From Bacillota bacterium (GTDB taxonomy: Bacteria; Bacillota; Sulfobacillia; JAIMAT01), in assembly GCA_029961055.1 (NCBI GenBank), contig JASBVM010000048.1, positions 5,600 to 69,599 of the forward strand: 64,000 bases of DNA, written 5' to 3'. The stretch's first letter is position 1; each line of letters opens with the position of its first letter. Made by a program: the position numbers and the translations under genes. Below the pieces are notes generated by a model, which was given only the letters and a program-made list of their open reading frames with translations, was not told where the DNA came from and did not search any database. Of this stretch, positions 18,193 through 37,256 are shown piece after piece.

Positions 18193-19206
18193 TCAGTAGA
18201 TCAGCCTCTCGCGGACGCCGATCCGCTTCCGGAAGATCCAGTAGGTCCAGGCCTGGTAGGCGAGGACGAAGGGGACCAGAGTGACCGCGACGATGGTCAT
18301 CACCTTCAGCGTGTACGGGCTGGAGGAGGCGTTGTAGACGGTCAGATTCCAGGCCGGGTTGAGGCTGGAGATCATCACGTTCGGGTAGAGCCCCAGGAAG
18401 ATGGTGGCCACCGCGGCGACGATCATCACGCCGTTGAGCACGAAGGCCCAGCCGTCGCGGCCGCGGTCGAGCATCGGCCGCACCGCCAGCAGCGCCAGGC
18501 CGCCGACCACCACCAGGAGACCCGGCAGGAAGCCCGGCTTCTGGAAGAGGTCCGTGGCGAAGTAGCTGTAGACCGCGAAGAGAGCGGCCACCACCGTGGT
18601 CACGGCGCCCACCCGGCGCGCGGTGCCCACCGCCCGGTCGCGGAGCTCGCCCTCGGTCTTCAGCGCCAGGAAGAGCGCCCCGTGCAGGGTGAAGGCGAGC
18701 ACGGCGAAGAGGCCGCCCAGGATGCCGTAGGGACCGAGCAGCGTCCAGAGCGTCCCCGTGTAGTTCATCTTGGCGTCGATGGGCACGCCGTGCACCAGGT
18801 TGGCCAGCGCCACGCCCCAGAGGAGCGCTGGCAGGAGGCTGCCGACAAAGATCAGCCAATCCCAGGTGTTCCGCCAGCGCCGGCTCCCGTCGCGGCTCCG
18901 GTACTCGAAGCCGACGCCGCGGACGATGAGGGCGAGGAGCATCAGGACCAGCGCCAGGTAGAAGCCGCTGAACATGGTCGCGTACCAGTTGGGGAAGGCC
19001 GCGAACATCGCCCCGCCGGCGGTGATGAGCCAGACTTCGTTGCCGTCCCAGTGGGGGCCCACGGTGTTGAGCAGCACCCGACGCTCCTGGTCCGAGCGAC
19101 CGAGCCAGGGAAGCAGGATGCCCACGCCGTAGTCGAAGCCCTCCAGGAAGAAGTAGCCCACGAAGAGCACGACGATCAGCGCGAACCAGACCGTGTTCAG
19201 ATCCAT
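18193..19206 (-). CDS. cydB: Cytochrome bd ubiquinol/menaquinol oxidase subunit II.
   Basis: MDLNTVWFALIVVLFVGYFFLEGFDYGVGILLPWLG... Confidence 0.9.
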   Translation of the reverse strand: MDLNTVWFALIVVLFVGYFFLEGFDYGVGILLPWLGRSDQERRVLLNTVGPHWDGNEVWLITAGGAMFAAFPNWYATMFSGFYLALVLMLLALIVRGVGFEYRSRDGSRRWRNTWDWLIFVGSLLPALLWGVALANLVHGVPIDAKMNYTGTLWTLLGPYGILGGLFAVLAFTLHGALFLALKTEGELRDRAVGTARRVGAVTTVVAALFAVYSYFATDLFQKPGFLPGLLVVVGGLALLAVRPMLDRGRDGWAFVLNGVMIVAAVATIFLGLYPNVMISSLNPAWNLTVYNASSSPYTLKVMTIVAVTLVPFVLAYQAWTYWIFRKRIGVRERLIY

Positions 19207-19219
19207 TCGCCTTCCCTCC

Positions 19220-20614
19220 TCAGACGCCCACGCCCGGCTCGACGCCGACCACGGGGGCCGCCTCCGCTTCGGTGCTCTCCAGGCCGAGCCGGACGTACTT
19301 GAGCGTGAGGTAGACGTCGGCCGCGGCCATGACCGCGTAGAGCAAGGTGAAGAGGCCGAGGCTGAGCCCGACGTCCAGCGCGCTCACGGTCGGCGAGACC
19401 GCGTTGGCCGTCTTCAGGAGGCCGGTCACCACCCACGGCTGCCGGCCGATCTCGGTCATCAGCCAACCGGTGGTGTTGGCGATGTAGGGCAGCGCGATCG
19501 CCCAGACGAGCAGCCGCAGGAAGCCTCTCCGCGCGCCCAGGTCCCGCTTCCTCCACATCAGGACGGCGCCGTAGATGCCCAGGATGAGCATCAGCACGCC
19601 GGCCAGCACCATGATGCGGAAGCTCCAGAAGGTGACGCCGACGGGCGGCACGTAGTCCCCGGGACCGTAGCGGGCCACCGCCTGCTGCTGCAGCTCGGCG
19701 ATGCCCGGCACGCTGCCGGAGAGCCTGCCGTAGGCCAGGAGGCTGAGGGCGTACGGGATCTGGATCTCCAGGTAGTTGCGCTGGTTGGCGCTGTCGGGGA
19801 TGGCGAAGAGCGTCCACGGCGCCGGATCCGGGCTGGTCTTCCACAGCGCCTCCGAGGCCGCCATCTTCATCGGCTGGGCGCTGACCAGGTGGACCGCCTG
19901 GGCGTGGCCCATCACCACCACCAGAAGGCTGAAGACCGCCGCGAAGAGGACCCCCAGCCGGAGCGAGCGGACGAAGAGATCGGGATGGTGCCCGCGCAGG
20001 ATCTGGTAGGCGCTGATGCCGGCGACGAAGAAGCCGGCGGTGGCGTAGGCGCCGAAGATGACGTGCGGGAACTCCACCCAGAGCTGCGGGTTGCCCAGCA
20101 GGGCGAAGAAGTCGACCATCTCGGCCCGGCCGTGACGGAGGACGAAACCCACCGGCTCCTGCATGAAGGAGTTGGCGGTCAGGATCCAGAGGGCCGAGAG
20201 GGTGGTGCCCAGGGCCACGAGCCACATGGAGGCCGCGTGGAGCGACTTGGAGACCTTGTCCCACCCGAAGATCCAGAGTCCGAGGAAGGTGGACTCCATG
20301 AAGAAGGCGAGCAGCGCCTCCACGGCCAGGGGTGCCCCGAAGATGTCGCCCATGAAGCGGGAGTAGTCCGACCAGTTCATGCCGAACTGGAACTCCTGGA
20401 GGATGCCGGTGACGACGCCCAGCGCAAAGTTGACCAGGAAGAGCCTGCCGAAGAATTCCGCCAGCTTCCTGTACGCCATGTCGCCGCGACGCACGTAGAG
20501 CGTCTCCAGGATCGCCACGAGGACACTCAGGCCCATGGTCAGCGGCACAAACAGAAAGTGGTAGACGGTCGTGACGCCGAACTGCCATCGCGCAAGCAGA
20601 AGATTCAGATCCAT
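19220..20614 (-). CDS. cydA: Cytochrome bd ubiquinol/menaquinol oxidase subunit I.
   Basis: MDLNLLLARWQFGVTTVYHFLFVPLTMGLSVLVA... plus a Q-loop. Confidence 0.9.
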   Translation of the reverse strand: MDLNLLLARWQFGVTTVYHFLFVPLTMGLSVLVAILETLYVRRGDMAYRKLAEFFGRLFLVNFALGVVTGILQEFQFGMNWSDYSRFMGDIFGAPLAVEALLAFFMESTFLGLWIFGWDKVSKSLHAASMWLVALGTTLSALWILTANSFMQEPVGFVLRHGRAEMVDFFALLGNPQLWVEFPHVIFGAYATAGFFVAGISAYQILRGHHPDLFVRSLRLGVLFAAVFSLLVVVMGHAQAVHLVSAQPMKMAASEALWKTSPDPAPWTLFAIPDSANQRNYLEIQIPYALSLLAYGRLSGSVPGIAELQQQAVARYGPGDYVPPVGVTFWSFRIMVLAGVLMLILGIYGAVLMWRKRDLGARRGFLRLLVWAIALPYIANTTGWLMTEIGRQPWVVTGLLKTANAVSPTVSALDVGLSLGLFTLLYAVMAAADVYLTLKYVRLGLESTEAEAAPVVGVEPGVGV

Positions 20615-23964: not shown

Positions 23965-25362
<1,398 letters not shown>

Positions 25363-25517
25363 GCTGGGTACCCCCTTCCGGTCTACGAGCCTGATTTCGC
25401 CGGGGCCCCCTCATTTCCTCATCCGCCCGGAAGGCGGGCGCCCGCGCGGAGCGAATCGCCCTTCTAGCGGGGCTCCGCGCCGCCGCGCGGCGGCCCGGCG
25501 GGGAGGGAGGGTGGGCG

Positions 25518-26531
25518 GTGCGGGTGGTGATCACGGGCGGCACGGGGCTGATCGGTCGGGCGTTGTGCGAGAGCCTGGCCGGGGACGGCCACGAGGTGAC
25601 GGTGCTCAGCCGGAGACCGGATGCGGAGCGGAAGCGGCGCCTTCCTCCCGGTTGCCGCCTCCTGCCCTGGCCCGCCCTGCCCGCGGCCGAGCGGACCCTG
25701 TTGCCGGGGCCCCGGCCGGGCGAGTCCGACGGGTGGCGGCGCGCCCTGGAGGAGGCGGAGGCGGTCGTCCATCTGGCGGGCGAGTCGATCGCCGGCGGCC
25801 GGTGGAACCAGGCCCGGAAGGAGAGGATCCGGGGCAGCCGGGTCGCCTCCACCCGGGCGCTGGTGGAGGCGCTGGCGGCGGCGGAGCGGAGGCCGGGGGT
25901 CCTGGTCAGCGCCTCGGCGGTGGGCTACTACGGCCCCCGCGGCGACGAGGAAGTGACCGAGGAGTCGCCCCCCGGCTCCGACTTCCTGGCGCGGGTCTGC
26001 GTCGCCTGGGAGCGGGAGGCGGAGGTGGCCGAGGGGCTGGGGCTGCGCGTGGTCCTGCTGCGGACAGGGTTGCTGCTGGCCGCCCAGGGCGGCGCGCTGC
26101 CGGAGCTCGTCCGGCCGTTCCGGCTCTGGGTGGGCGGTCCCCTGGGCACGGGGAGGCAGTGGGTGCCCTGGATCCACCTGGCCGACGAGGTCGGCCTGAT
26201 CCGCTGGGCGCTGGAGGAGGAGCGGCTGCGCGGGCCGCTCAACGCCACCGCACCCGAGCCGGTCCGCCAGCGAGAGCTGGCGCGCCAGCTGGGGCGGGTG
26301 CTGGCAAGGCCGTCCTGGCTCCCCGCGCCGGCACCGCTGCTCCGTCTGGCGCTGGGCGAGATGGCGGAGGCGCTCCTCCTGGGCGGGCAGCGCGCGCTGC
26401 CCGCGCGGGCGCTGGCGCTGGGCTACCGCTTCCGCTTTCCGCGGCTGGAGCCGGCGCTCCGGGATCTCCTGGGCCCGCGCCGCGGGCGCGACGGCCCGCC
26501 GGGCGAGGAGCGGTACCCCTCCGGTCCGTGA
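25518..26531 (+). CDS. NAD-dependent epimerase/dehydratase family protein (YfcH/TIGR01777-like).
   Basis: MRVVITGGTGLIGRAL... Rossmann fold; GTG start after GGGAGGGAGG. Confidence 0.65.
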   Translation: MRVVITGGTGLIGRALCESLAGDGHEVTVLSRRPDAERKRRLPPGCRLLPWPALPAAERTLLPGPRPGESDGWRRALEEAEAVVHLAGESIAGGRWNQARKERIRGSRVASTRALVEALAAAERRPGVLVSASAVGYYGPRGDEEVTEESPPGSDFLARVCVAWEREAEVAEGLGLRVVLLRTGLLLAAQGGALPELVRPFRLWVGGPLGTGRQWVPWIHLADEVGLIRWALEEERLRGPLNATAPEPVRQRELARQLGRVLARPSWLPAPAPLLRLALGEMAEALLLGGQRALPARALALGYRFRFPRLEPALRDLLGPRRGRDGPPGEERYPSGP

Positions 26532-26559
26532 ACCGGGTCCGGAGGGAGGCCGCACCCCC

Positions 26560-27654
26560 GTGCGCGGGCGGAACGGAGAGGCGAGACCGACGCAGAAAAG
26601 GGGTTGGCGAACTTTGCAGGAGAGGATCTCCCGACCGCGCGGCCCCGAGGCCGCGCTCCTGGACGGCTACCCGCACGTCCCCTGGCGGCGCGGCCAGGTC
26701 AATCTGCGCCGGGAGCGGAACCGCTTCGAACAGGGTGAGATCGGCGCGGCGGCGCTGGCGGCAGCCTACGACGCGACGGTCCTGCGCATCGTGGGCGAGC
26801 AGGAGGAGGCCGGCCTCGACCCGGTCACGGACGGGCAGGCGCGGCAGGACGACCTGATGGAGCCGCTCGTCCGCGACCTGTCCGGCCTCGAGCCGGGCGG
26901 CCTGCTGCGCTACTACGACAACAACTTCTACTACCGGGCCCCCAGGGTCACCGGCCGGATCGCGGCGCGGGGCATGAGCCTGGCCGGCCAGGTCGCCTGG
27001 CTGGTGCGGCGGACGAGCCGCCGGGTGAAGGTGGTGCTGCCGGGTCCGCTGACCGCGGCCGCGCTGGTGGTGGACGAGCACTACCACGATCGCGAAAGGC
27101 TGCTGGCCGACCTGAGCGAGGCGCTCCACCTGCTGGCCGGGCAGGCGGTGGAGGCGGGAGCGGCCGTCCTTCAGCTGGACGAGCCGGAGCTGGTCCGCCC
27201 GCAGGGGGAGAACCGGGTGAGGGCCCGCCAGGAGCGGGCCGCCTGGCTGTCGGAGGCCCGGCAGGCGACGGCGCGGGTGGTCGAGGGGCTGGGCGCCCGC
27301 ACCCAGGTGGCGCTCTTCTTCGGCCCGTCGGCGCCCCTCCTGGACGAGCTGGCCGGCTGGCCGGCGGACGACCTGCTCTTCGACCTGGCTTCCGATCCCT
27401 CGCTCGTCGACGGGCTGGCCGGCGGGGGTTTCCCCAAGGGGGTGGGGCTCGGCTGGCTGGACGCGCGCCAGCCCCGCCTGGAGCCGGTGGAGGAGGCGGA
27501 GCGGCTCGTCGACAGGCTTTCCGGGAAGATCCCGCTGGAACGGATCACGCTCCACCCCAGCGCCAGCCTCGAGTTCCTCCCGGCCGACAAGGCCCGGGCC
27601 AAGCTGGAACGGCTGGGCGAGGCGCTGCGGGCGATCAGGGGGGATGGGCGATGA
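26560..27654 (+). CDS. Protein resembling the N-terminal (folate-binding) half of cobalamin-independent methionine synthase MetE.
   Basis: FEQGEIGAAALAAAYDATVLRIVGEQEEAGLDPVTDGQ...YYDNNFYYRAP... is collinear with the MetE N-domain. The true start is uncertain. Confidence 0.55.
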   Translation: MRGRNGEARPTQKRGWRTLQERISRPRGPEAALLDGYPHVPWRRGQVNLRRERNRFEQGEIGAAALAAAYDATVLRIVGEQEEAGLDPVTDGQARQDDLMEPLVRDLSGLEPGGLLRYYDNNFYYRAPRVTGRIAARGMSLAGQVAWLVRRTSRRVKVVLPGPLTAAALVVDEHYHDRERLLADLSEALHLLAGQAVEAGAAVLQLDEPELVRPQGENRVRARQERAAWLSEARQATARVVEGLGARTQVALFFGPSAPLLDELAGWPADDLLFDLASDPSLVDGLAGGGFPKGVGLGWLDARQPRLEPVEEAERLVDRLSGKIPLERITLHPSASLEFLPADKARAKLERLGEALRAIRGDGR

Positions 27655-28682
27655 CGACAGGCGGGCAGGGCGGCAGCCGGACCGGCCCCAGGAAGCTGGG
27701 CGTCCCCCACCGGACGCTGCGCACCACCGGGGTCGGCAGCCTGCCCAAGCCGCCCGCGCTGCTGGAGGCGCGGGAGCGGGCGCAGCGGGGCGAGATCGGC
27801 GCCGACGAGCTCCGGCGGCTGGAGCGGAAGGCCACGGAGGAGTGGATCCGCTTCCAGGAGTCGATCGGCATCGACATCCCCGTACACGGCGAGATGGAGC
27901 GGGGCGACATGGCCACCTTCTTCGCCGAGCTCCTGGAGGGTTTCACCATCTCGGGCCCGGTCCGCTCCTACGGGAACCGCTACTACCGGAAGCCGATCGT
28001 GGTCGGGCCGGTGCGCCGGGTCCGCCCGCTCACGGTGGAGCGCTGGCGCGAAGCCCAGGCGCTGACCGACCGGCCGGTCAAGGCGATCCTGACCGGTCCC
28101 TACACGATGTGCGACTGGTCCTTCAACGAGTACTACCCCGACCGCAGGAGCCTCGCCCTGGCGCTGGCGGAGGCGCTCCACGAGGAGGCGCGGGCGCTGG
28201 AGGAAGCCGGGGCGCAGTTCATCCAGATCGACGAGCCGGCCATCTCCACCCGGCCGGAGGAGATCGACCTGGCGATCGAGGCCCTGGGAAGGGTGACCGA
28301 GGGGCTCCGGGCCCACACCATCAGCCACATCTGCTACGGCCGCTGGGAGGAGGTCTTCCCGGCCATCCTCTCGCTGCCCGTGGCCCAGCTCGACCTGGAG
28401 ATGGCCAACGGCGGCTACGCGCTGCTCGACCTGCTGCGCCGCTATCCCTCCCACGGCAAGGAGATCGGGTTGGGCGTGATCGACGTCCACAGCCACCGGA
28501 TCGAGAGCGTGGAGGAGGTGAAGCAGGGCATCTACCGCGCGTTGGAGGTGCTTCCTGCCGACCGGGTCTACGTCGATCCCGACTGCGGCCTCAAGACGCG
28601 TACCGAGGAGGAAGCCAGGCGGAAGCTGGAGGTGATGGTGCGTGCCGTCCGGGAGGTGCGCGAGGAGCTGGGGCTGACGTGA
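27651..28682 (+). CDS. Protein resembling the C-terminal (Zn/homocysteine-binding) half of cobalamin-independent methionine synthase MetE.
   Basis: GVGSLPKP...IPVHGEMERGDM...IQIDEPAIS...HICYG...DPDCGLKTR (His/Cys/Cys zinc ligands). The ATG overlaps the previous stop. Confidence 0.7.
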   Translation: MTTGGQGGSRTGPRKLGVPHRTLRTTGVGSLPKPPALLEARERAQRGEIGADELRRLERKATEEWIRFQESIGIDIPVHGEMERGDMATFFAELLEGFTISGPVRSYGNRYYRKPIVVGPVRRVRPLTVERWREAQALTDRPVKAILTGPYTMCDWSFNEYYPDRRSLALALAEALHEEARALEEAGAQFIQIDEPAISTRPEEIDLAIEALGRVTEGLRAHTISHICYGRWEEVFPAILSLPVAQLDLEMANGGYALLDLLRRYPSHGKEIGLGVIDVHSHRIESVEEVKQGIYRALEVLPADRVYVDPDCGLKTRTEEEARRKLEVMVRAVREVREELGLT

Positions 28683-30634
28683 GCAGCCCCTTCCTGAAGG
28701 CGCTGGAGCAGGGGCCGCTCCTCGCCGACGGTGCCGTCGGCACGCAGCTCCACGCGCGGGGCGCGCCGCTGCAGGGTTCGCTGGAGCTGCTCAACCTGCG
28801 CTCGCCGGAGCTCGTCCTCGACCTCCACCTGGACTATCTCCGGGCCGGCGCGCAGCTGCTGACCACCAACACCTTCCAGGGGCACCGGCTGGCGCTCGCG
28901 CCCCACGGGCTGGAGGACGAGGTCTGGAACCTCAACGTGGCCGCGGTCAAGCTGGCCCGCCAGGCGCGGGAGATGGCCGGCCGCGAGGCGCTCGTCGGCG
29001 CCTCGGTGGGGCCCTGCCAGGGGGCGATGGCCCCCCTGGGCCGGCTGCAGGCGGAGGCGGTGGAGAGCGCCTACCGCGAGCAGGTGCGGGCGCTGGTGGC
29101 CGGCGGGGCCGATCTCTTCCTGCTGGAGACGTTCTCGGACCCGCGCCAGCTGGCGCTGGCGCTGCGCGCGGTGCGCGCGGAGTCGGACCTGCCCGCGGTC
29201 GCCTTCTTCACCTTCTCCGCCGACGGGACCACGCTCTTCGGCGCGCCCGTGGAGCGGGCGGCGGAGGAGTTCCTCGAGGCGCTGGACGGCCAGCCGCTGC
29301 CGGAGCTGCTGGGCGTCAACTGCGGCGCCGGGCCGGCCCCCAGCCTGGAGAGCCTGGCCCGGCTGGAGCGCGCCCTGGAGGAGCTTCTCCCGGCCGGACG
29401 ACGGCCGTGGTGGGCGCTCTCGCCCAACGCCGGGCTGCCTCAGCGGGTGGAGGGACGCGTCCACTACCCCGCCCATCCCGCCTACTTCGCCCGGACGGTG
29501 GCCCGGGGGCTCCAGCTGGGGGCGCGGCTGGTGGGTGGCTGCTGCGGCACCTCGCCGGAGCACGTGGCCCAGCTCCGGCTCGAGCTGGAGCGCGGGCACC
29601 CCGGGCCGGGCGCCGCCCGGAGCGGGAGACAGGGGGTGCTGCGCGCAGGGCGGGCCCAGCGAGGGCCCGGGACCGCCGGGGGCGGGGGCACGCCCGGCGC
29701 CCCTGCCCCGGAGGAAGCGACCGCGGCGGGGGAGGGCGCGGGCTCCCGGCTGGCCGCCCGACTCGGCCGGCGGCTGGTGCTCAGCCTGGAGCTCGACCCG
29801 CCGCGGGGCGCCGTGGTGGAGCGCTTCCTCGCCCAGGCGCGGGCGGCGCGGGAGGCCGGGGTCGACGCCGTCAACGTGGGCGACAGCCCCATGGCACGGG
29901 TGCGGATGTCCTCCCTGGCGGCCGCGCACCTCGCCCAGCGGGAGGCGGGCGTCGAGGCGATCCTCCACTTCACCACCCGGGACCGGAACCTGATGGGGCT
30001 CCAGGCGGACCTGCTGGGCGCCCATGCGCTCGGCATCCGGAACGTCCTGGCGCTGACCGGCGATCCCCCCGCCCTGGGCAACTACGCCCACGCCACGGCC
30101 GTCTACGACCTGGACTCGGTGGGCCTGATCCGGCTCCTCCGCCAGCTGAACGACGGCGAGGACGCCGCCGGCAACCGGCTGGCCCAGCCGACCCGCTTCC
30201 TCATCGGCTGCGCGCTCAACCCCGCCGCCGCCGATCTGGAGCGGGAGGTGGAGCGCTTCCGGGCGAAGGTGGCCGCCGGCGCCCACTTCGCCATGACGCA
30301 GCCGGTCTACGACCCCTCCGAGCTGGAGGTGGTCCTGGACCGGCTGGGCGGCCCGCCCGTCCCCGTCCTGGCCGGCCTGATGCCGCTGGCCAGCTACCCG
30401 CACGCCCTCTACCTGCACAACGAGGTGCCCGGCATCCGCATCCCCGAGGCGCTCCTCCGGCGCATGGAATCGGCGGGGAGCGAGGCGCACCGGGTCGGAC
30501 TGGAGGCGGTCCAGGAGGTGTGGGAGCGGATCCGGCCCTGGGTGGCCGGCGCCTACGTGGTCCCCAGCTTCCAGCGGGTGGAGGACGCCCTCGCCCTCAC
30601 GCGCTGGCTCCGGGCTCAGGAGCCGGCCGGGTGA
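28679..30634 (+). CDS. Bifunctional homocysteine S-methyltransferase / 5,10-methylenetetrahydrofolate reductase (YitJ-like).
   Basis: N-terminal Hcy-binding domain (ADGAVGTQL...GCCGTSPEHV) and a C-terminal MetF domain (FSLELDPPRG...HFTTRDRN...LALTGDPP). GTG 28679 overlaps the upstream stop (GTGA). Confidence 0.8.
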   Translation: MSSPFLKALEQGPLLADGAVGTQLHARGAPLQGSLELLNLRSPELVLDLHLDYLRAGAQLLTTNTFQGHRLALAPHGLEDEVWNLNVAAVKLARQAREMAGREALVGASVGPCQGAMAPLGRLQAEAVESAYREQVRALVAGGADLFLLETFSDPRQLALALRAVRAESDLPAVAFFTFSADGTTLFGAPVERAAEEFLEALDGQPLPELLGVNCGAGPAPSLESLARLERALEELLPAGRRPWWALSPNAGLPQRVEGRVHYPAHPAYFARTVARGLQLGARLVGGCCGTSPEHVAQLRLELERGHPGPGAARSGRQGVLRAGRAQRGPGTAGGGGTPGAPAPEEATAAGEGAGSRLAARLGRRLVLSLELDPPRGAVVERFLAQARAAREAGVDAVNVGDSPMARVRMSSLAAAHLAQREAGVEAILHFTTRDRNLMGLQADLLGAHALGIRNVLALTGDPPALGNYAHATAVYDLDSVGLIRLLRQLNDGEDAAGNRLAQPTRFLIGCALNPAAADLEREVERFRAKVAAGAHFAMTQPVYDPSELEVVLDRLGGPPVPVLAGLMPLASYPHALYLHNEVPGIRIPEALLRRMESAGSEAHRVGLEAVQEVWERIRPWVAGAYVVPSFQRVEDALALTRWLRAQEPAG

Positions 30635-31020
30635 GCCGCGGGCCGGCTCGCCTCCAGGAGCCGGCGGAGCCCGTCGGGCAGGCGGCGCGCCCGCCCGCTC
30701 GCCCGGTCGACCAGCACCTGGACCGTCTCGCCGCTGGCCACGGCCCGGCCGTCCTCGCCCTCGACCCGGTACTCCAGCGTGAAGGCGGAGCTGCGCACCT
30801 CGCCGACGCGCAGGCCGATGCGGAGCCTCTCGCCGAAGCGGGCGGGGCTCCGGAAGGTGCACCGCGCCTCCGCCAGCACCATCGGAAAGGAGCCGTCCAG
30901 CGCCCCTTCCAGCGCCTCCTCCAGCCAGAGGGTGCGGGCTTCCTCGAAGTAGGTGAAGTAGACCGCGTTGTTGACGTGGCCCATCATGTCGCAGTCGCGC
31001 CAGGTGACGCGCCGCGTCAT
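30616..31020 (-). CDS. Acyl-CoA thioesterase, 4HBT/YbgC family.
   Basis: 134 aa; MTRRVTWRDCDMMGHVNNAVYFTYFEEART... The ATG shares 1 nt with the cysE stop (TGATG). Confidence 0.7.
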   Translation of the reverse strand: MTRRVTWRDCDMMGHVNNAVYFTYFEEARTLWLEEALEGALDGSFPMVLAEARCTFRSPARFGERLRIGLRVGEVRSSAFTLEYRVEGEDGRAVASGETVQVLVDRASGRARRLPDGLRRLLEASRPAAHPAGS

Positions 31021-32021
31021 CAGGAAGCCGAACCCGTCCAGCTCCGTTCCCCCCTCGCGGGCTGCGCCGCGCCATGGGGCGGCCGCAGCTCCACCGTCGG
31101 CCGGTGGAGCACCATCGCGCCGGCCGGGACGCTCTCGGTCACCCAGCAGTTGCCGCCGATGACGGCGCCGCGGCCGACGACCGTCGAGCCGCCCAGGATG
31201 GTGGCGCCGGAGTAGACGACGACGTCGTCCTCCAGGGTGGGGTGGCGCTTCTGGTTGCGGATCAGCTCGCCGTGCTCGTCCTTGGGGAAGCTGAGCGCGC
31301 CGATGGTCACCCCCTGGTAGAGCTTGACGTGATCGCCGATCACGGCGGTCTCGCCGATGACCACGCCGGTCCCGTGGTCGATGAAGAAGTTCCGGCCGAT
31401 CCGGGCGCCGGGGTGAATGTCGATGCCCGTCACGCTGTGCGCATGTTCCGTCATCATGCGCGGGATGAGCGGAACGCCCAGGCGCCAGAGCTCGTGCGCC
31501 AGCCGGTAGACCAGGACGGCGAAGAAGCCGGGATAAGCGAGCAGGATCTCGTCGTAGCTCTTGGCCGCGGGGTCGCCGTCGTAGGCGGCCCGCACGTCGC
31601 CGCAGAGCGTCGCCCGGATGTCGGGCAGGCGCGCGATGAACTCCGCCGCCACCTCCTGCGCCCAGCCCATCTCGGGGCAGACCGAGCCGGAGGTGTCGCA
31701 CGCGTGGGGCCGGGCCGAGTGGATCTCGTCGGCCAGATCCCAGAAGATGTCGCCCAGGCGCTCGTTGAGCGCCGTGACGTCGAGGCGGACGGCCTGCCGC
31801 CCGCTGTAATGTCCGGGGAAGAGCACCCGGCGGAGTTTCCCGATCAGGCGGACCAGCCGCTCCGCGTCAGGGTACCGGGGGGCGGCGGGTTCCGGCAGGT
31901 CGCCCTCCCGATGCTCCGCGTGGAGCCGCTCGGCCGCCTCGGCCACACGCTCCACGGCTCGCTCCAGGACGCCGCGCGGGACCCGGCCGCCCTCCTCCTC
32001 CAGGTCATGGGCCAATGCCAT
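31020..32021 (-). CDS. cysE: Serine O-acetyltransferase.
   Basis: Hexapeptide repeats (GARIGRNFFIDHGTGVVIGETAVIGDHVKLYQGVTIG) and a SATase N-domain. ATG 32021 after an AAGGAGGG RBS; the 32141 ORF start was rejected. Confidence 0.85.
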   Translation of the reverse strand: MALAHDLEEEGGRVPRGVLERAVERVAEAAERLHAEHREGDLPEPAAPRYPDAERLVRLIGKLRRVLFPGHYSGRQAVRLDVTALNERLGDIFWDLADEIHSARPHACDTSGSVCPEMGWAQEVAAEFIARLPDIRATLCGDVRAAYDGDPAAKSYDEILLAYPGFFAVLVYRLAHELWRLGVPLIPRMMTEHAHSVTGIDIHPGARIGRNFFIDHGTGVVIGETAVIGDHVKLYQGVTIGALSFPKDEHGELIRNQKRHPTLEDDVVVYSGATILGGSTVVGRGAVIGGNCWVTESVPAGAMVLHRPTVELRPPHGAAQPARGERSWTGSAS

Positions 32022-32101
32022 CGCCCTCCTTCGCTCCCCCAATCTAGCATCGCGGGCGCACCGGCCGCATACGCCTGGAGCGAACCGCCGGGGGTGAGGC
32101 C

Positions 32102-32488
32102 ATGGGCGATCTGAAGGCGATGGCCGACCAGATCCGGGCACACGAGTCGGAGCTGGTGCCGCACTACGAGGAGCTGGCGCGGGCGGCCCAGACGCCCGCG
32201 GAGATCAAGATCGTCCACCAGCTCAAGTCCTATCAGCGGCTCCAGCTGCTCAGCCTCGAGCTGCTGGGCGATCGGGTGCCGGAGCGCTTCCTGGGCTTCG
32301 GGCGCGTCTCCGCCGACGACGTCAACATCCGCTCGGCACCCAACGGGCAGTCCAGCCTGGTGGGCAAGGTGCGGCAGGGCGACCAGGTGATCATCTGCAG
32401 CTACCAGGGCTACTGGGTCGAGGTCCAGGTGATGCACGGCCCGTCCGGGTACATCTTCCGCGACTACGTCCAGGAAGAGGGCGGCTGA
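32102..32488 (+). CDS. Hypothetical protein with an N-terminal helical region and a C-terminal bacterial SH3 (SH3b) domain.
   Basis: VNIRSAPNGQSSLVGKVRQGDQVIICSYQGYWVEVQ is the SH3_3 pattern. Confidence 0.5.
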   Translation: MGDLKAMADQIRAHESELVPHYEELARAAQTPAEIKIVHQLKSYQRLQLLSLELLGDRVPERFLGFGRVSADDVNIRSAPNGQSSLVGKVRQGDQVIICSYQGYWVEVQVMHGPSGYIFRDYVQEEGG

Positions 32489-34016: not shown

Positions 34017-34793
34017 GTGGCAGAGCCCAGGCCCAACCTCTGGGAGCGGATCCGCGGGACCGCGCTCTACAGGTCGATCTACCGGACGCGCTACCCGGAC
34101 CAGCCTCGGTGGCAGTCCATGGTCATCCTGCAGAGCTTGGCGCTCCACCTGCATCCGGTCCGAATACCCAAGCGGGCCACCCGTCTCACCTACACGTGGG
34201 GGCTGGGGGGGCTGAGCGTCTGGCTCTTCCTCATCCTCACCTTCACGGGCGTCTTCCTGATGTTCTACTACGTGCCCGACGTGCCGGGCGCCTACTTCTC
34301 CATCCAGAACCTGGCCACAAGCGTCACCTTCGGCCAGTTCATGCGCAACCTCCACCGCTGGGCCGCGCACGCCATGGTCCTGCTGGTCTTCATGCACATG
34401 ACGCGCGTCTTCCTGACCGGCTCCTACAAGCGGCCGCGGGAGTACAACTGGATGGTCGGCGTCGGCCTCCTGGTGCTCACCTTCCTGCTCAGCTTCACCG
34501 GCTATCTCCTGCCCTGGGACCAGCTGGCGCTCTGGGCGATCACGGTGGGGACCAACATGGCCGGCTCGACGCCGCTCATCGGCGGCACCGTCCGGACGGC
34601 GCTCCTGGGCGGTTTCAGCGTGGGGCCGGCGACGCTGGTGCGCTGGTACACCCTGCACGTCATCTTCCTGCCGCTGGCGCTGATCGTGGGCATGAGCATC
34701 CACTTCTGGCGCATCCGCAAGGACGGCGGCATCTCCACCCCGATCTACGAGGAAGAGGAGATTGGGACCCATGTCCAGCAGCTTGCCGGGTGA
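34017..34793 (+). CDS. qcrB: Menaquinol-cytochrome c reductase cytochrome b subunit (b6-type, split).
   Basis: Heme-ligand His pairs in TM helices (FMRNLHRWAAHAMV..., LPWDQLALWAI). GTG start after AAAGGGGGG. Confidence 0.85.
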   Translation: MAEPRPNLWERIRGTALYRSIYRTRYPDQPRWQSMVILQSLALHLHPVRIPKRATRLTYTWGLGGLSVWLFLILTFTGVFLMFYYVPDVPGAYFSIQNLATSVTFGQFMRNLHRWAAHAMVLLVFMHMTRVFLTGSYKRPREYNWMVGVGLLVLTFLLSFTGYLLPWDQLALWAITVGTNMAGSTPLIGGTVRTALLGGFSVGPATLVRWYTLHVIFLPLALIVGMSIHFWRIRKDGGISTPIYEEEEIGTHVQQLAG

Positions 34794-35550
34794 ACGGACT
34801 CAACCGCTGGAGGAGGAAGGCGCACCCGCGCGGAACCCGCGCGAGCGCTTCTTCGAGGACGTGCCCGAGGAGGAGACGCGCTCCGTCTTCGTCTGGCCCA
34901 ACCTGCTCAGCATCGAGCTGGTCGGCGGCCTCCTGCTCCTGCTCCTCCTCAGCGTCCTGGCCGTCCTGGTCAACGCGCCGCTGGAGACGCTGGCCAACGA
35001 CGAGAAGACGCCCGACCCGTCCAAGGCGCCCTGGTACTTCCTCGGCCTGCAGGAGCTGCTCCTGCACATGCACCCGTCGCTGGCCGGCGTGATCGTGCCC
35101 GGAGTGGTCATCCTCGGCCTGATGGCCATCCCGTACATCGATCGGGAACGGGTCGGCACCGGCATCTACTTCACCACCAAGAAGGGGCTCCCCATCGCCC
35201 TGTTCTCGCTGGTCTACACGGCGGTCTGGGAGGTGGGGCTGATCCTGCTGGACCAGTACCTCCCCGCTGCCGAGGGCGGCCACGGCCTGGGCCCCTACCT
35301 GCACACGGTGCTGGGCTGGCCGGAGTGGATCTCCGCCATCGCGGTGCCGAGCGTGATCATGCTCTTCATCCCGACGCTGCTGGCCCTCATCGTGCGCAGG
35401 CGCTGGCAGGCCGACACGCGCGAGGTGATGATCGCGCTCTACGCCTTCTTCTTCGCCTCGTTCTGGACGCTGACCATCGTCGGGACCTTCTTCCGCGGGG
35501 AGAGCATGAACCTGGTCCTGCCGTGGAATCTTCCCGGCTTCAGCGAGTAG
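34771..35550 (+). CDS. qcrC: Cytochrome b6-f complex subunit IV-like protein (C-terminal half of cytochrome b).
   Basis: [11 protein letters not shown] (PEWY-type motif) and 3 TM helices. ATG 34771 after GAAGAGGAG; overlaps the qcrB 3' end. Confidence 0.8.
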
Positions 35551-35578
35551 CGATCGTCGGCATGGGGGTGAGCGTGGC

Positions 35579-36130
35579 GTGAGCGTACAACCGGAGGCAG
35601 AGAAGCCGTCGGCCCAGCCCAAGCCGGCCCCGGAGCCGGAGAAGGTGAGCCGGCGGAGGCTCCTGCGCTACCTGATGTGGGGGTCGACGGGCGTCTTCAC
35701 ACTCGCCGTGGCGGGGACCGGGCTGGGCATGTTCTGGCCGCGCAAGATCGAGGGCTTCGGCGGCAAGGTGGTCGCCGGCCCGGTGAGCAAGTTCGCGCAG
35801 CCCCTCAGCGTCACCGTCGTGCGCGAAGGCAAGTTCTACGTCTCGCATGTGACCAGGAAGTACGCGCCCACCGAGGGGCTGATCGCGCTCTACTGGCGGT
35901 GCGTCCACCTGGGGTGCACCGTCCCCTGGGTCCCCGCCGAGGATCGCTTCCACTGCCCCTGCCACGGCTCGATCTACGATCACGCGGGCAAGAACATCGC
36001 CGGACCGGCGCCGCGACCGCTGGACTGGATGCCGTTGACGATCGAAAAGGGGATCGTGGTGGTCGACACGGGCAAGATCAACCAGCGGCACGCGGTGGAG
36101 GCCGATCAGATCACGCCGCTCAACGGCTGA
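35579..36130 (+). CDS. qcrA: Rieske [2Fe-2S] iron-sulfur subunit.
   Basis: CVHLGC...CPCHGS boxes; N-terminal TAT-like RRRLLRYLM. Confidence 0.85.
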
Positions 36131-36145
36131 ACGGAGGGGAAGCAG

Positions 36146-36310
36146 GTGCTGCTGCAGCTGTCGGGCGCACGCGGGGAAGCGATCGAACTCCTGGTGGTCA
36201 TGCTGACGCTGGGCGTCTTCTACGTCTCGATGTGGGCCATCGACCGCTGGATCCGGACCGACCGGCCCGGGCAGGTCGCCCGCCAGGGAGGTGCCCGGGG
36301 TGGCCGATGA
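36146..36310 (+). CDS. Small (54 aa) single-TM protein, missing from the ORF track because of its size; possible small subunit of the bc complex.
   Basis: GTG 36146 six nt after an ACGGAGGGGAAG RBS, right after the Rieske stop. Hydrophobic core IELLVVMLTLGVFYVSMWAI. Its 3' end overlaps the cytochrome c start. Confidence 0.4.
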   Translation: MLLQLSGARGEAIELLVVMLTLGVFYVSMWAIDRWIRTDRPGQVARQGGARGGR

Positions 36311-37256
36311 ACCCGTCCAGGACCGCGAGCGGGTCTACTTCCTGGTGATGATCTTCTCCTGGCTGCTGGTCCTCCTCCTCGTCGGCTACGCCATCTACGA
36401 CCCGCTCCGCATGGCCGACGCGGCGGCGCAGCAGCGCCAGCAGTCCATCCAGAGCGGGGCGCGGCTCTATGCCCAGTACTGCATGGTCTGCCACGGTCCC
36501 AACGGCGAGGGCGTGGTCGGGAAGCCGCTCAACCGGCCGGACCTGCAGGGCGATCCGGCCGCCAAGCAGGACGTGGTGGCGATGCTGACGCAGACCATCA
36601 CCAACGGCCGGCCGGGCTCCACGGTGCCGCGCTGGGTCCGCCTGCCCGGCGGCGAGTGGGCCTCCTTCACCGCCATGCCCGCCTGGGGGCGGTCGCAGAA
36701 CGGGCCGCTCGACGAGCAGATGGTCAACGATCTGGTGGCCTTCATCATGAACGGCGACTTCGCCTTGGCCAACCGGTACACGCCGCCGGTGGGGACGGGG
36801 ACGCTCGGCCCGGCGGCTGCGTCCGATCCGGCCAAGCTGGCCACGCAGCTGCCCAAGCCCGCCGGCCTCGACGCCGGGACGTACGCGCAGGCGCAGAAGA
36901 TCGTCGGCAAGTACGGCTGCCTCAGCTGCCACACCATCGGCTCGGTGGGCGGCCGGATCGGGCCGGACCTGACCCAGGTGGGCAGCTGGGGGCTGGACGC
37001 CGACTTCCTCCAGGCGTGGGTGCTCCATGCCCCGACGGTCAAGGAGCGGGCGCCCGTCTACTGGTCCAACTACCAGAACCCCTTCCCCGTGCTGGAGCGA
37101 GCGCTGGGCAGCGGCGGGAAGGCGGACGGCCGGCTCGACCCGTTGCCGGCCCCGGTCCCCCTCCGCATCGGCACCGACATGCCCGACTTCTCCAAGGCGG
37201 GCATGACGCCGGAAGAGGCGAAGACGCTGGCCGACTACCTGCTCCACCTGAAGTGA
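36300..37256 (+). CDS. Membrane-anchored diheme cytochrome c.
   Basis: Two CxxCH motifs (CMVCH, CLSCH) and an N-terminal TM helix VYFLVMIFSWLLVLLLVGYAIY. Start GTG 36300 (after CAGGGAGGTG) or 36291. Confidence 0.75.
   Translation: MADEPVQDRERVYFLVMIFSWLLVLLLVGYAIYDPLRMADAAAQQRQQSIQSGARLYAQYCMVCHGPNGEGVVGKPLNRPDLQGDPAAKQDVVAMLTQTITNGRPGSTVPRWVRLPGGEWASFTAMPAWGRSQNGPLDEQMVNDLVAFIMNGDFALANRYTPPVGTGTLGPAAASDPAKLATQLPKPAGLDAGTYAQAQKIVGKYGCLSCHTIGSVGGRIGPDLTQVGSWGLDADFLQAWVLHAPTVKERAPVYWSNYQNPFPVLERALGSGGKADGRLDPLPAPVPLRIGTDMPDFSKAGMTPEEAKTLADYLLHLK

Follow-up and report, generated by a model that had tools for sequence, protein, structure and literature searches.

A probable split cobalamin-independent methionine synthase encoded next to a YitJ/SamT-type fusion gene in an uncultured Bacillota bacterium

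Three overlapping genes from the MAG of an uncultured, very GC-rich Bacillota bacterium (GC 73.6%) raise the question of whether the first two encode, as separate polypeptides, the two barrels of cobalamin-independent methionine synthase (MetE), and of what the third contributes to this module. The locus was studied within a window of 64 kb, i.e. the whole stretch of DNA analysed (Table 1). As the initial annotation had described, the three open reading frames lie on one strand and share 4-nt stop/start overlaps at both junctions (ATGA at 27651-27654 and GTGA at 28679-28682). A purine-rich, SD-like stretch is found 8-10 nt 5' of each start. Translation of ORF1, ORF2 and ORF3 would be coupled through these overlaps, and transcription would probably start upstream, possibly at a site shared with the preceding epimerase-family gene. 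The latter is a context gene, outside methionine chemistry, that may be co-transcribed with the methionine module. It is also present in L006, a relative that is 80% identical, and was not found at the Carboxydochorda or Sulfobacillus loci.

Table 1. Coordinates of the methionine module and of its 5' surroundings in the window
Feature	Position	Strand	Size or basis
Epimerase + DUF1731 family gene	25518..26531	+	337 aa; Pfam match
Spacer, epimerase-family gene to ORF1	26532..26613	+	82 nt
ORF1, probable zinc-less partner subunit of split MetE, stand-alone MetE N-terminal barrel homologue	26614..27654	+	346 aa
ORF2, probable catalytic Zn/homocysteine barrel of split MetE	27651..28682	+	343 aa
ORF3, predicted YitJ/SamT-type bifunctional protein	28679..30634	+	651 aa
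ORF3, homocysteine S-methyltransferase domain	~28688-29608	+	S-methyl_trans match
ORF3, MTHFR domain	~29771-30619	+	MTHFR match

ORF2 is a complete zinc-dependent catalytic barrel of MetE. It matches Meth_synt_2 of Pfam (261 bits), passes the NCBIfam model NF003317 'methionine synthase' (409.5 bits, cutoff 406) and is 63-69% identical to hundreds of bacterial 'methionine synthases' of ~325 aa. All the zinc and homocysteine residues of E. coli MetE are conserved (7/7), S30, E81, D194, H226, C228, E250 and C312 corresponding to S433, E484, D599, H641, C643, E665 and C726, which bears out the earlier reading of this gene as the C-terminal catalytic barrel with its Zn ligands. Furthermore, R110, R113 and W156 occupy the putative equivalents of the folate contacts R493, R496 and W539 of T. 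maritima MetE. The pterin-binding Glu of the latter (E583) has no clear positional equivalent, because the β4-α4 loop of ORF2 is ~10 residues shorter.

ORF1 is a 'hypothetical protein' in the source record. It had been read as a protein of ~360 aa starting at GTG 26560; this start (364 aa) is not conserved in two close orthologues, and the likely start is TTG 26614 (346 aa), which is used by the deposited annotation and aligns with the starts of these orthologues. No NCBIfam model reaches its cutoff on ORF1, and in Pfam Meth_synt_2 (76.7 bits) exceeds Meth_synt_1 (36.9 bits), as it does slightly in six further bacterial partners that were scanned. Taken as a single sequence, ORF1 scores 61 bits with the C half of solved MetE versus 9.8 bits with the N half, and the N half of E. 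coli MetE gives no tblastn match to it. Because the single sequence thus scores better on the C-terminal barrel, the claim of the initial annotation that ORF1 resembles only the N-terminal barrel is wrong as written. The residues of ORF1 at the zinc and homocysteine positions (G18/Q75/D189/A233/F235/D257/A317) nevertheless include replacements specific to N barrels: the equivalent of Cys643 is aromatic (F235), that of Glu665 is an Asp (D257) and the His is lost (A233). A further N-barrel feature is the FDNN-YYR motif, which matches WFDTNYHY. The AF2 model of ORF1 (pLDDT 91.2) has MetE structures as its best Foldseek matches (TMq 0.82-0.85). ORF1 folds as a MetE-type barrel, and the loss of its zinc site parallels that in the N-terminal barrel of one-chain MetE. 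With a dN/dS of 0.22-0.33, similar to that of its neighbours, it evolves, like them, under purifying selection.

The relationships of ORF1 are clearer at the level of its family. A genome scan returned 261 relatives of this partner from many bacterial phyla, and the loci of the best 80 of these 261 were compared; archaeal members (Gugararchaeum, Bathyarchaeia) also belong to the family. In hhalign comparisons, the profile of the partner family scores 305 with MetE N halves, 302 with MetE C halves and 493 with split-type catalytic barrels, and it recognizes the N half of C. albicans MetE (102.7 bits). The partner family therefore lies nearer to MetE N halves than do catalytic barrels (305 versus 134), although ORF1 taken alone does not, and it has diverged much less from the catalytic barrel than has the N barrel of one-chain MetE (score of 121 between MetE N and C halves). 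The His-x-Cys motif is absent from all 80 genome-contig partners (the best 80 of 261). It is likewise absent from all 132 cluster representatives of partner length (290-400 aa) among the 150 matches listed in a search of 1.84 billion proteins. Instead, partners display a non-ligand residue followed by Tyr/Phe and by Asp, and often keep the last Cys; this pattern agrees with the changes F230, Y232, D253 and C309 at the counterpart positions in the N barrel of T. maritima MetE (Pejchal & Ludwig 2005, PMC539065). With such replacements and a profile score of 305 against MetE N halves, the alternative considered in the initial annotation, that ORF1 is a generic UroD/MetE-superfamily protein, fails.

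The diagnostic N-barrel substitutions and the profile match to MetE N halves therefore lead to the reading that ORF1 and ORF2 are probably the two subunits of a cobalamin-independent methionine synthase (split MetE). Such enzymes were proposed by Price, Deutschbauer & Arkin (2021, PLoS Genet; PMC7857596), with PF1268 and PF1269 of P. furiosus as the prototype; the P. furiosus homologues are cited there as forming a physical complex. The methyl donor is a prediction, and that paper notes one bacterial case, encoded by adjacent genes of Sulfobacillus sp. hq2. Its authors recognized catalytic components by a score of at least 200 bits with PF1269 (phmmer), and second components by a length of at most 400 aa and a match to Meth_synt_1 that exceeds the match to Meth_synt_2. 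ORF2 has the features of the catalytic component (at most 400 aa, Meth_synt_2 match, unaltered residues for zinc (H, C, E, C) and for homocysteine (S, E, D)), and the two genes are adjacent, with a 4-nt overlap here, as in 63 of the 80 related loci. ORF1 reaches the Meth_synt_1 cutoff (36.9 bits for 27) but scores 76.7 bits with Meth_synt_2, and would therefore be missed by the automatic filter. However, this filter is an operational and not a biological rule, since its authors state that true partners are lost and acknowledge its failure for AMET1_0515 (PMC7857596). As in split MetE, a zinc-less Meth_synt_1/2-type barrel and a complete catalytic barrel, neither longer than 400 aa, are encoded by neighbouring genes in this order. 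Compared with the counterparts in Sulfobacillus MAGs, ORF2 is 66-69% and ORF1 37-40% identical. On sequence grounds, the module would thus be a further case of split MetE as described in 2021, whose function is predicted.

The pair also resembles one-chain MetE (E. coli b3829; T. maritima, PMC539065): it includes the same two types of barrels, in the same N-to-C order, with the zinc/homocysteine residues in ORF2, the disabling substitutions in ORF1, and a fold of ORF1 that matches MetE as indicated above. It differs from it by the presence of two polypeptides devoid of any interdomain linker. A frameshift or an error of assembly could in principle have divided a single metE gene into ORF1 and ORF2; in favour of this, the gene order is that of the domains of one-chain MetE, and a fused relative of 699 aa, P0255, exists. 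However, the two genes meet in a clean ATGA overlap that has an SD-like sequence of its own, the ~35-residue interdomain linker has left no remnant, and the overlaps have the same structure in the two close orthologues. The catalytic gene lies directly 3' of the partner gene, as a separate gene, in 63 of the 80 loci (best 80 of 261). These loci belong to at least 9 phylum-level groups, and their tblastn-estimated spacing varies from about -57 to +161 nt, one artefactual outlier aside. The broken gene is refuted by these comparative data and keeps practically no probability. The division of MetE into a gene for a non-catalytic N-barrel-type protein and a gene for the catalytic C barrel, as initially proposed, therefore stands.

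Homocysteine methyltransferase (HMT) and MTHFR genes follow the partner-catalytic pair in 24 of the 80 loci and are fused in 22 of them. The same three-gene order is found in MAGs of Bacillota, Limnochordales, Sulfobacillus, Actinomycetes, Ignavibacteria and Zixibacteria. The arrangement had been called unusual, which is overstated: it is correct but ordinary, because split MetE was described in 2021 (PMC7857596) and the gene order is common in uncultured bacteria. These neighbouring genes, together with the basic and Trp residues of ORF2 at putative folate contacts, also link the pair to folate.

One other reading concerns the donor of the methyl group. ORF2 alone could be a folate-independent core synthase of the MesA type, supplied by a corrinoid protein or methylcobalamin, ORF1 being an accessory or vestigial paralogue. 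Like MesA, MesB, MesC and MesD, ORF2 is a stand-alone catalytic barrel in the ~300-390-aa range with a zinc site, and it is devoid of the β4-α4 extension that widens the inter-barrel interface in one-chain MetE. Moreover, MesA is the core synthase nearest to the split-type catalytic subunits, a characterised MesA being 38% identical to one of them (PMC7857596), and 15 of the 80 partner-type genes have no adjacent catalytic gene. However, MesA-D act without any N-barrel partner, via corrinoid proteins or MesX plus O2 (PMC7857596), whereas here a conserved partner gene is adjacent. The adjacency recurs, with tight spacing, in most related loci, and the dN/dS of ORF1 equals that of ORF2. MTHFR, the maker of methyl-THF, is encoded in the same operon, as in the 24 loci mentioned above, and no B12-binding or pterin-binding domain is matched anywhere in the window. 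Among NCBIfam models, NF003317 scores best on ORF2, ahead of those at 166-181 bits, and DUF1852 (MesX, adjacent to MesD) was not seen among the neighbours scanned. Lastly, genes for a cytochrome bd oxidase, a cytochrome b and a cytochrome c in the window indicate aerobic respiration, in contrast with the carriers of MesA, MesB and MesC (PMC7857596). Folate-independent synthesis by ORF2 alone is thus improbable.

In the split MetE, ORF2, which has every zinc ligand and homocysteine-binding residue of the MetE catalytic barrel, would bind zinc and activate homocysteine. ORF1 and ORF2 would pair face to face, like the two barrels of one-chain MetE, and 5-methyl-tetrahydrofolate, probably polyglutamylated, would be bound in the cleft between them, its methyl group being handed directly to the zinc-bound thiolate. 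The conserved basic residues R32 and R99 of ORF1 may stand in for the folate contacts of the N barrel, and the C-terminal MTHFR domain of ORF3 would supply the 5-methyl-THF used by the pair. As the window covers 64 kb of the genome, further methionine synthases may be encoded outside it.

The partner is perhaps more than a passive lid. The Ser/Gln/Asp triad, which in catalytic barrels binds the amino-acid end of homocysteine, is kept by most members of the partner family; partners may therefore themselves bind a ligand, such as a glutamyl residue in the folate tail. The lineage of the window is atypical within this family and differs from split MetE as described by Price et al.: ORF1 carries an 11-residue β4-α4 insertion, DGYPH instead of GSYPK, and a Phe instead of a Tyr. 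The inserted helix occupies the position at which the catalytic barrel of one-chain MetE was enlarged; the interface between the barrels may thus have been rebuilt, here on the side of the partner. It can be imagined, although it is unlikely, that the partner is a slowly evolving survivor of MetE from before the fusion, perhaps ligand-binding, with an interface rebuilt in this lineage; in this scheme, the partner family is equidistant from present N and C barrels (305 and 302).

ORF3, whose start (GTG 28679) is consistent with those of its orthologues, is a YitJ/SamT-type homocysteine S-methyltransferase/MTHFR fusion. It matches S-methyl_trans (210.8 bits, residues 14-300) and MTHFR (117.4 bits, residues 365-617), the two domains being separated by a Gly/Ala/Pro-rich linker, and it passes NF006396 over residues 4-647 (623.5 bits, cutoff 453). 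The zinc ligands C247/C310/C311 of MetH are conserved as C215/C288/C289, and E28/D120/Q183 of MetF as E371/D462/Q541. It thus shares both domains and their zinc and catalytic residues with B. subtilis YitJ/SamT and differs from it by the length of its linker, by its translational coupling to split MetE and by the lack of an S-box in its lineage. The fusion had been recognized from the outset, but the proposed methyl-THF dependence of its methyltransferase does not hold: the N-terminal domain is only a Zn(Cys)3 homocysteine-binding barrel, without pterin-binding or B12 domain, and YitJ/SamT is described as an AdoMet-dependent homocysteine methyltransferase (PMC6302742). By homology with the B. 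subtilis protein, this domain would be a separate methyltransferase using AdoMet (including its inactive R,S isomer) or S-methylmethionine. A second methyl-THF route, as implied by the initial annotation, would exist if the domain instead bound homocysteine for a cobalamin-dependent MetH in several parts, with the B12 and pterin modules encoded at other loci. Among solved structures, homocysteine domains of MetH are indeed nearest to it (8G3H, 150 bits, versus 86 bits for 5DML, a stand-alone homocysteine S-methyltransferase). Nevertheless, this has little chance of being correct, given the absence of B12- and pterin-binding matches in the window, a fusion partner that is MTHFR and not a MetH module, the passing of the YitJ-type equivalog model by the full-length protein and the AdoMet use described for YitJ/SamT.

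Also unlike split MetE as previously described, the module is associated with a YitJ-type fusion and, among its relatives, with SAM-I riboswitches; neither association was found in the available text of PMC7857596. The window itself contains no Rfam family at gathering score, no match to a custom SAM-I model and, between 24800 and 27200, no SAM-type riboswitch at E<=10. The S-box had thus rightly been reported as missing upstream of ORF1: the RF00162 aptamer that characterizes SAM-I met operons is lacking in this leader. The spacer is devoid of riboswitches and of terminator-like or sigma-70-like sites, the promoter/terminator scan of 25200-31200 returned 0 sites, and conservation of the spacer with L006 and L011 is limited to the ~25 nt before the ORF1 start. 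The surprise expressed about the missing S-box was fair, since 38 of these 80 loci (best 80 of 261) have a SAM-I riboswitch 5' of the partner gene, as do L004 and L009. The lineage of the window thus lacks the riboswitch that would control this module in many of its relatives. Its presence 5' of so many partner genes links the pair to methionine metabolism; in two loci (L064 and L080), it precedes, in this order, a gene encoding a Cys/Met PLP enzyme and the partner, catalytic and fusion genes.

The module of the window is a further case of split MetE, a methionine synthase made of two separate proteins, an N-barrel-type partner (here ORF1) and a catalytic C barrel (ORF2), which is already described and widespread. 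In its passages on this type of enzyme, the work of Price et al. 2021 (PMC7857596) defines "split MetE" from PF1268 and PF1269 of P. furiosus, two adjacent genes whose products form a complex. These passages place split MetE mostly in Halobacteria and Thermoprotei, give Sulfobacillus sp. hq2 as a bacterial case of adjacency and predict that the methyl group comes from methyl-THF or from a different methyl-pterin. A biochemical test of split MetE was not found in the literature searched. The core reading of the initial annotation, i.e. a MetE split in two genes and followed by a YitJ-like fusion (ORF3), is right, and the finding is real. Its view of the arrangement as unusual is overstated, given this earlier description and the wide occurrence of related loci.

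Genes of the module and of its surroundings (window coordinates)
Feature	Position	Strand	Remarks
Cytochrome genes, first group	18193-20614		
ORF1, zinc-less partner	26560/26614-27654	+	ORF call; start 26614 favoured
Segment of the ORF1 insertion	27178-27234		ORF1 residues ~189-207
ORF1/ORF2 junction	27651-27654		ATGA
ORF2, catalytic barrel	27651-28682	+	ORF call
ORF2/ORF3 junction	28679-28682		GTGA
ORF3, homocysteine methyltransferase (HMT)-MTHFR fusion	28679-30634	+	ORF call; start GTG 28679
4HBT thioesterase gene	30616-31020	-	
Serine-acetyltransferase-like gene	31020-32141	-	
Cytochrome genes, second group	34017-37256		

At the protein level, the window shows 100% identity to a contig of a MAG labelled "Bacillota bacterium" (locus tag QJR14_10000). 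Translational coupling of the three genes, already proposed from the sequence, is borne out by the two stop/start overlaps and by the purine-rich Shine-Dalgarno-like stretch found 8-10 nt 5' of each start. Because of the high G+C content of the window (73.6%), the ORF3 frame is open back to 27644, 1 kb upstream of the true start, and a longest-ORF rule would give a 996-aa protein; the GTG start is fixed by orthologues. Many long spurious ORFs in other frames also overlap the real genes between 27644 and 30634. The annotated TTG start of ORF1 at 26614 aligns with the starts of two close orthologues, whereas the GTG at 26560, initially taken as the start, lies within an unconserved stretch. On this basis, ORF1 probably comprises 346 aa and is probably separated from the upstream gene by 82 nt. 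This upstream epimerase/DUF1731 gene may be co-transcribed with the module. The serine-acetyltransferase-like and thioesterase genes, which are also neighbours in L006, an 80%-identical relative, converge on ORF3, with a 19-nt overlap between the 3' end of ORF3 and that of the thioesterase gene. Genes encoding cytochrome bd oxidase subunits I and II, cytochrome b and cytochrome c flank the region, and this gene content indicates an aerobic or microaerobic respiratory lifestyle.

Related loci were collected by a scan of one genome per GTDB species relying on a partner-family profile and a single peptide pattern, which led to 261 confirmed partner-family stretches. The best 80 of these 261 belong to MAGs of Bacillota, Limnochordales, Sulfobacillus, Actinomycetota, Chloroflexi, Zixibacteria, Ignavibacteria, Eisenbacteria, Omnitrophota, Planctomycetales and Thermodesulfobacteriota; archaeal members of the family were found in Gugararchaeum and Bathyarchaeia. 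The catalytic gene is immediately downstream of the partner gene in 63 of the best 80 loci, with a spacing, as estimated by tblastn and one artefactual outlier aside, of about -57 to +161 nt; two loci end at a contig edge and 15 carry a solo partner-type gene. Homocysteine-methyltransferase and MTHFR genes directly follow the pair in 24 of these 80 loci, as one ORF in 22 of the 24. Carboxydochorda subterranea (complete genome) and a Sulfobacillus MAG have the full three-gene order as well. ORF1 and ORF2 could have been a single metE interrupted by a frameshift, a possibility raised in the initial annotation; it is rejected on comparative evidence, separate adjacent genes being kept in the 63 loci. 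This distribution shows split MetE as widespread in uncultured bacteria and not essentially archaeal.

ORF2 is a complete MetE catalytic barrel. Indeed, it matches the Pfam family Meth_synt_2 (261 bits), passes the NCBIfam equivalog NF003317 "methionine synthase" (409.5 bits for a cutoff of 406) and keeps seven out of seven functional residues of E. coli MetE, in line with the C-terminal barrel with Zn ligands recognized at first sight: S30, E81, D194, H226, C228, E250 and C312 correspond to S433, E484, D599, H641, C643, E665 and C726.

ORF1 had been described as resembling only the N barrel of MetE. As a single sequence, it is nearer to the C barrel, as indicated by its Pfam scores (76.7 bits for Meth_synt_2 vs 36.9 for Meth_synt_1) and by comparison with solved MetE structures (61 bits for the C half vs 9.8 for the N half); "only" must therefore be dropped, whereas the N-barrel assignment itself is upheld by N-barrel-specific substitutions. 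ORF1 shares 31% identity with ORF2 and is not matched by tblastn with the N half of E. coli MetE. With such Pfam scores, it would fail the filter of Price et al., as given in their account of the method, in which Meth_synt_1 must outscore Meth_synt_2; these authors themselves cite a true partner lost to their automatic filter (PMC7857596).

The zinc and homocysteine positions of ORF1 are occupied by G18, Q75, D189, A233, F235, D257 and A317, and ORF1 is thus not a catalytic barrel. In the N barrel of T. maritima MetE, the ligand His is lost (Phe230), the equivalent of the ligand Cys620 is Tyr232, beside an aromatic residue, that of Glu642 is Asp253, and Cys309, equivalent to the last-ligand Cys, is often kept (Pejchal & Ludwig, PMC539065). 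This disabling pattern is present in 80/80 partner proteins from genome contigs and in each of the 132 representatives of partner length (290-400 aa) found among the 150 matches listed from a profile search of 1.84 billion proteins. Across the partner family, a residue that is no ligand replaces His, Tyr or Phe replaces Cys, and an almost invariant Asp replaces Glu; the last position is Cys, Ala, Ser or Thr. Furthermore, the family and the N barrel have motifs in common (FDNN-YYR-P vs (K)WFD(T/S)NYHY; (T)YFG; DARN vs DGRN). In profile-profile comparisons (hhalign), the partner scores 305 against MetE N halves, 302 against MetE C halves and 493 against the split-type catalytic barrel, for 134 between the catalytic barrel and MetE N halves and 121 between MetE N and C halves. 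By these scores, the MetE N barrel has no closer known relative than the partner, which has diverged much less from the catalytic barrel than the N barrel has.

The AlphaFold model of ORF1 (14 sequences), predicted with confidence (pLDDT 91.2), has MetE chains as top Foldseek matches, with TMq values of 0.82-0.85 that are reported per whole chain and so do not separate N from C half, vs 0.55-0.58 for UroD. A generic protein of the UroD/MetE superfamily, envisaged in the initial annotation, is rejected on this fold match and on the MetE-specific motifs. The dN/dS values, all probably inflated by extreme GC3, are 0.22-0.33 for ORF1, 0.23-0.25 for ORF2 and 0.23-0.30 for ORF3; purifying selection thus acts on ORF1 as it does on the adjacent genes, and a decaying pseudogene is rejected.

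Several features set the lineage formed by ORF1 and two close orthologues (80-83% identity) apart from the rest of the partner family. These three proteins are the only members of the family with an 11-residue insertion directly after DEP(189-191), predicted to form an extra helix (ORF1 residues 198-206), which gives the β4-α4 loop the length found in one-chain MetE catalytic barrels. The insertion is faintly like the LPLR...YL.W segment of these barrels. The GSYPK motif of the family is replaced by DGYPH, and the Cys643 equivalent, Tyr in most partners, is Phe. Both ORF1 and ORF2 carry N-terminal extensions of ~20 residues.

The YitJ-like nature of ORF3 is confirmed by its match to NF006396 (623.5 bits for a cutoff of 453), by its S-methyl_trans (residues 14-300) and MTHFR (residues 365-617) domains and by its key residues, i.e. 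the MetH-type Cys3 zinc ligands C215, C288 and C289, and E371, D462 and Q541, equivalent to E28, D120 and Q183 of MetF. The proposal that its N domain depends on methyl-THF is not retained, since this domain consists only of a homocysteine/zinc barrel and its counterpart in B. subtilis YitJ/SamT is described as using AdoMet, preferably the (R,S) isomer (PMC6302742). As the nearest solved relatives of the N domain are MetH homocysteine domains, a role in a multi-part MetH keeps a slight chance, although a pterin-binding or B12 module was found nowhere in the 64-kb window.

The apparent lack of a SAM riboswitch, noted initially as a surprise, was confirmed. Rfam gave no match at gathering score in the whole window and only noise at E<=10 in region 24800-27200, and a custom SAM-I model built from relatives had no match in the window, in its close relatives L006 and L011 or in Carboxydochorda; a hidden riboswitch is thus rejected. 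Yet a SAM-I aptamer precedes the partner gene on the coding strand in 38 of the best 80 of 261 loci, and in L004 and L009, as found by the custom model and by Rfam itself. The absence observed here is thus lineage-specific, and the riboswitches of the relatives link the partner gene, on independent grounds, to methionine synthesis. In two MAGs of Sulfobacillus and Bacillota (L064, 2586-4984; L080, 2601-5002), the aptamer precedes the partner gene by 1.3 kb and is followed by genes encoding a Cys/Met-metabolism PLP enzyme, the partner, the catalytic barrel and the HMT-MTHFR fusion. Scans for consensus sigma-70 promoters and terminators (25200-31200) were empty, which is uninformative at such a G+C content. 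Two Actinomycetota MAGs have a TPP riboswitch on the 3' side of the split-metE pair (L090, 6021-6122, directly after the pair; L034, 7762-7861), which presumably belongs to the next, thiamine-related gene.

By comparison with T. maritima structures, ORF1 and ORF2 would sit face to face, and folate would occupy the cleft that separates the two proteins, bound chiefly to the catalytic barrel; the N-type barrel would give a few basic contacts and close the site. The MTHFR domain of ORF3 would supply 5-methyl-THF. R110, R113 and W156 of ORF2 occupy positions that probably correspond to R493, R496 and W539 of T. maritima, on the basis of motif identity and of a constant shift of 22-23 residues relative to E. 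coli, verified at the zinc ligands. In ORF1, motif alignment puts the invariant R32 and R99 at the positions of K18 and K104 of the N barrel. The folate-contact mapping is tentative, most of all for N-barrel residues. The pterin-binding Glu583 of T. maritima has no clear positional equivalent in ORF2 because its β4-α4 loop is ~10 residues shorter; two consecutive conserved Glu residues (E203, E204) are near this position. MTHFR in the operon (24/80), SAM-I before the partner (38/80) and the apparently kept folate contacts give indirect support to the prediction that split MetE uses methyl-THF.

The practical value of the finding lies in annotation and pathway reconstruction. The source record labels ORF1 "hypothetical", and neither ORF1 nor any of five scanned stand-alone partners from bacteria attains the cutoff of an NCBIfam model. 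Therefore, such genomes seem to have only a "core" methionine synthase, a reading that leaves them with an uncertain methyl donor. As a natural two-piece MetE, split MetE could also suit asking why direct methyl transfer from folate needs a second, catalytically dead barrel.

Some related loci depart from this organization. The 15 solo loci (L012-L014, L016-L018, L022, L025, L026, L029, L031, L048, L071, L076 and L087), from MAGs of Zixibacteria, Ignavibacteria and Omnitrophota, have a partner-type gene that lacks the zinc site, and no catalytic gene was found within up to 4 kb of flanking sequence. In L016 and L031 (Zixibacteria and Ignavibacteria MAGs), the only neighbours found are an upstream MiaB-like radical-SAM gene and GAF-response-regulator gene, which give no hint of a partner. 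In three sediment metagenome contigs (L001-L003, 7010-7909), the partner is followed by a gene encoding a 299-aa chimera that joins positions 1-169 of the Meth_synt_2 profile to positions 170-259 of MTHFR. An internal deletion seems to have joined the catalytic gene to the 3' end of an HMT-MTHFR gene, which makes the locus a degraded version of the three-gene module. Finally, P0255, a 699-aa protein from a Logan assembly, is a single chain in which a partner-type N half precedes a C half of the split-type catalytic kind (318 bits against NF003317 at residues 373-698); it is either a split MetE that was fused again or an intermediate.
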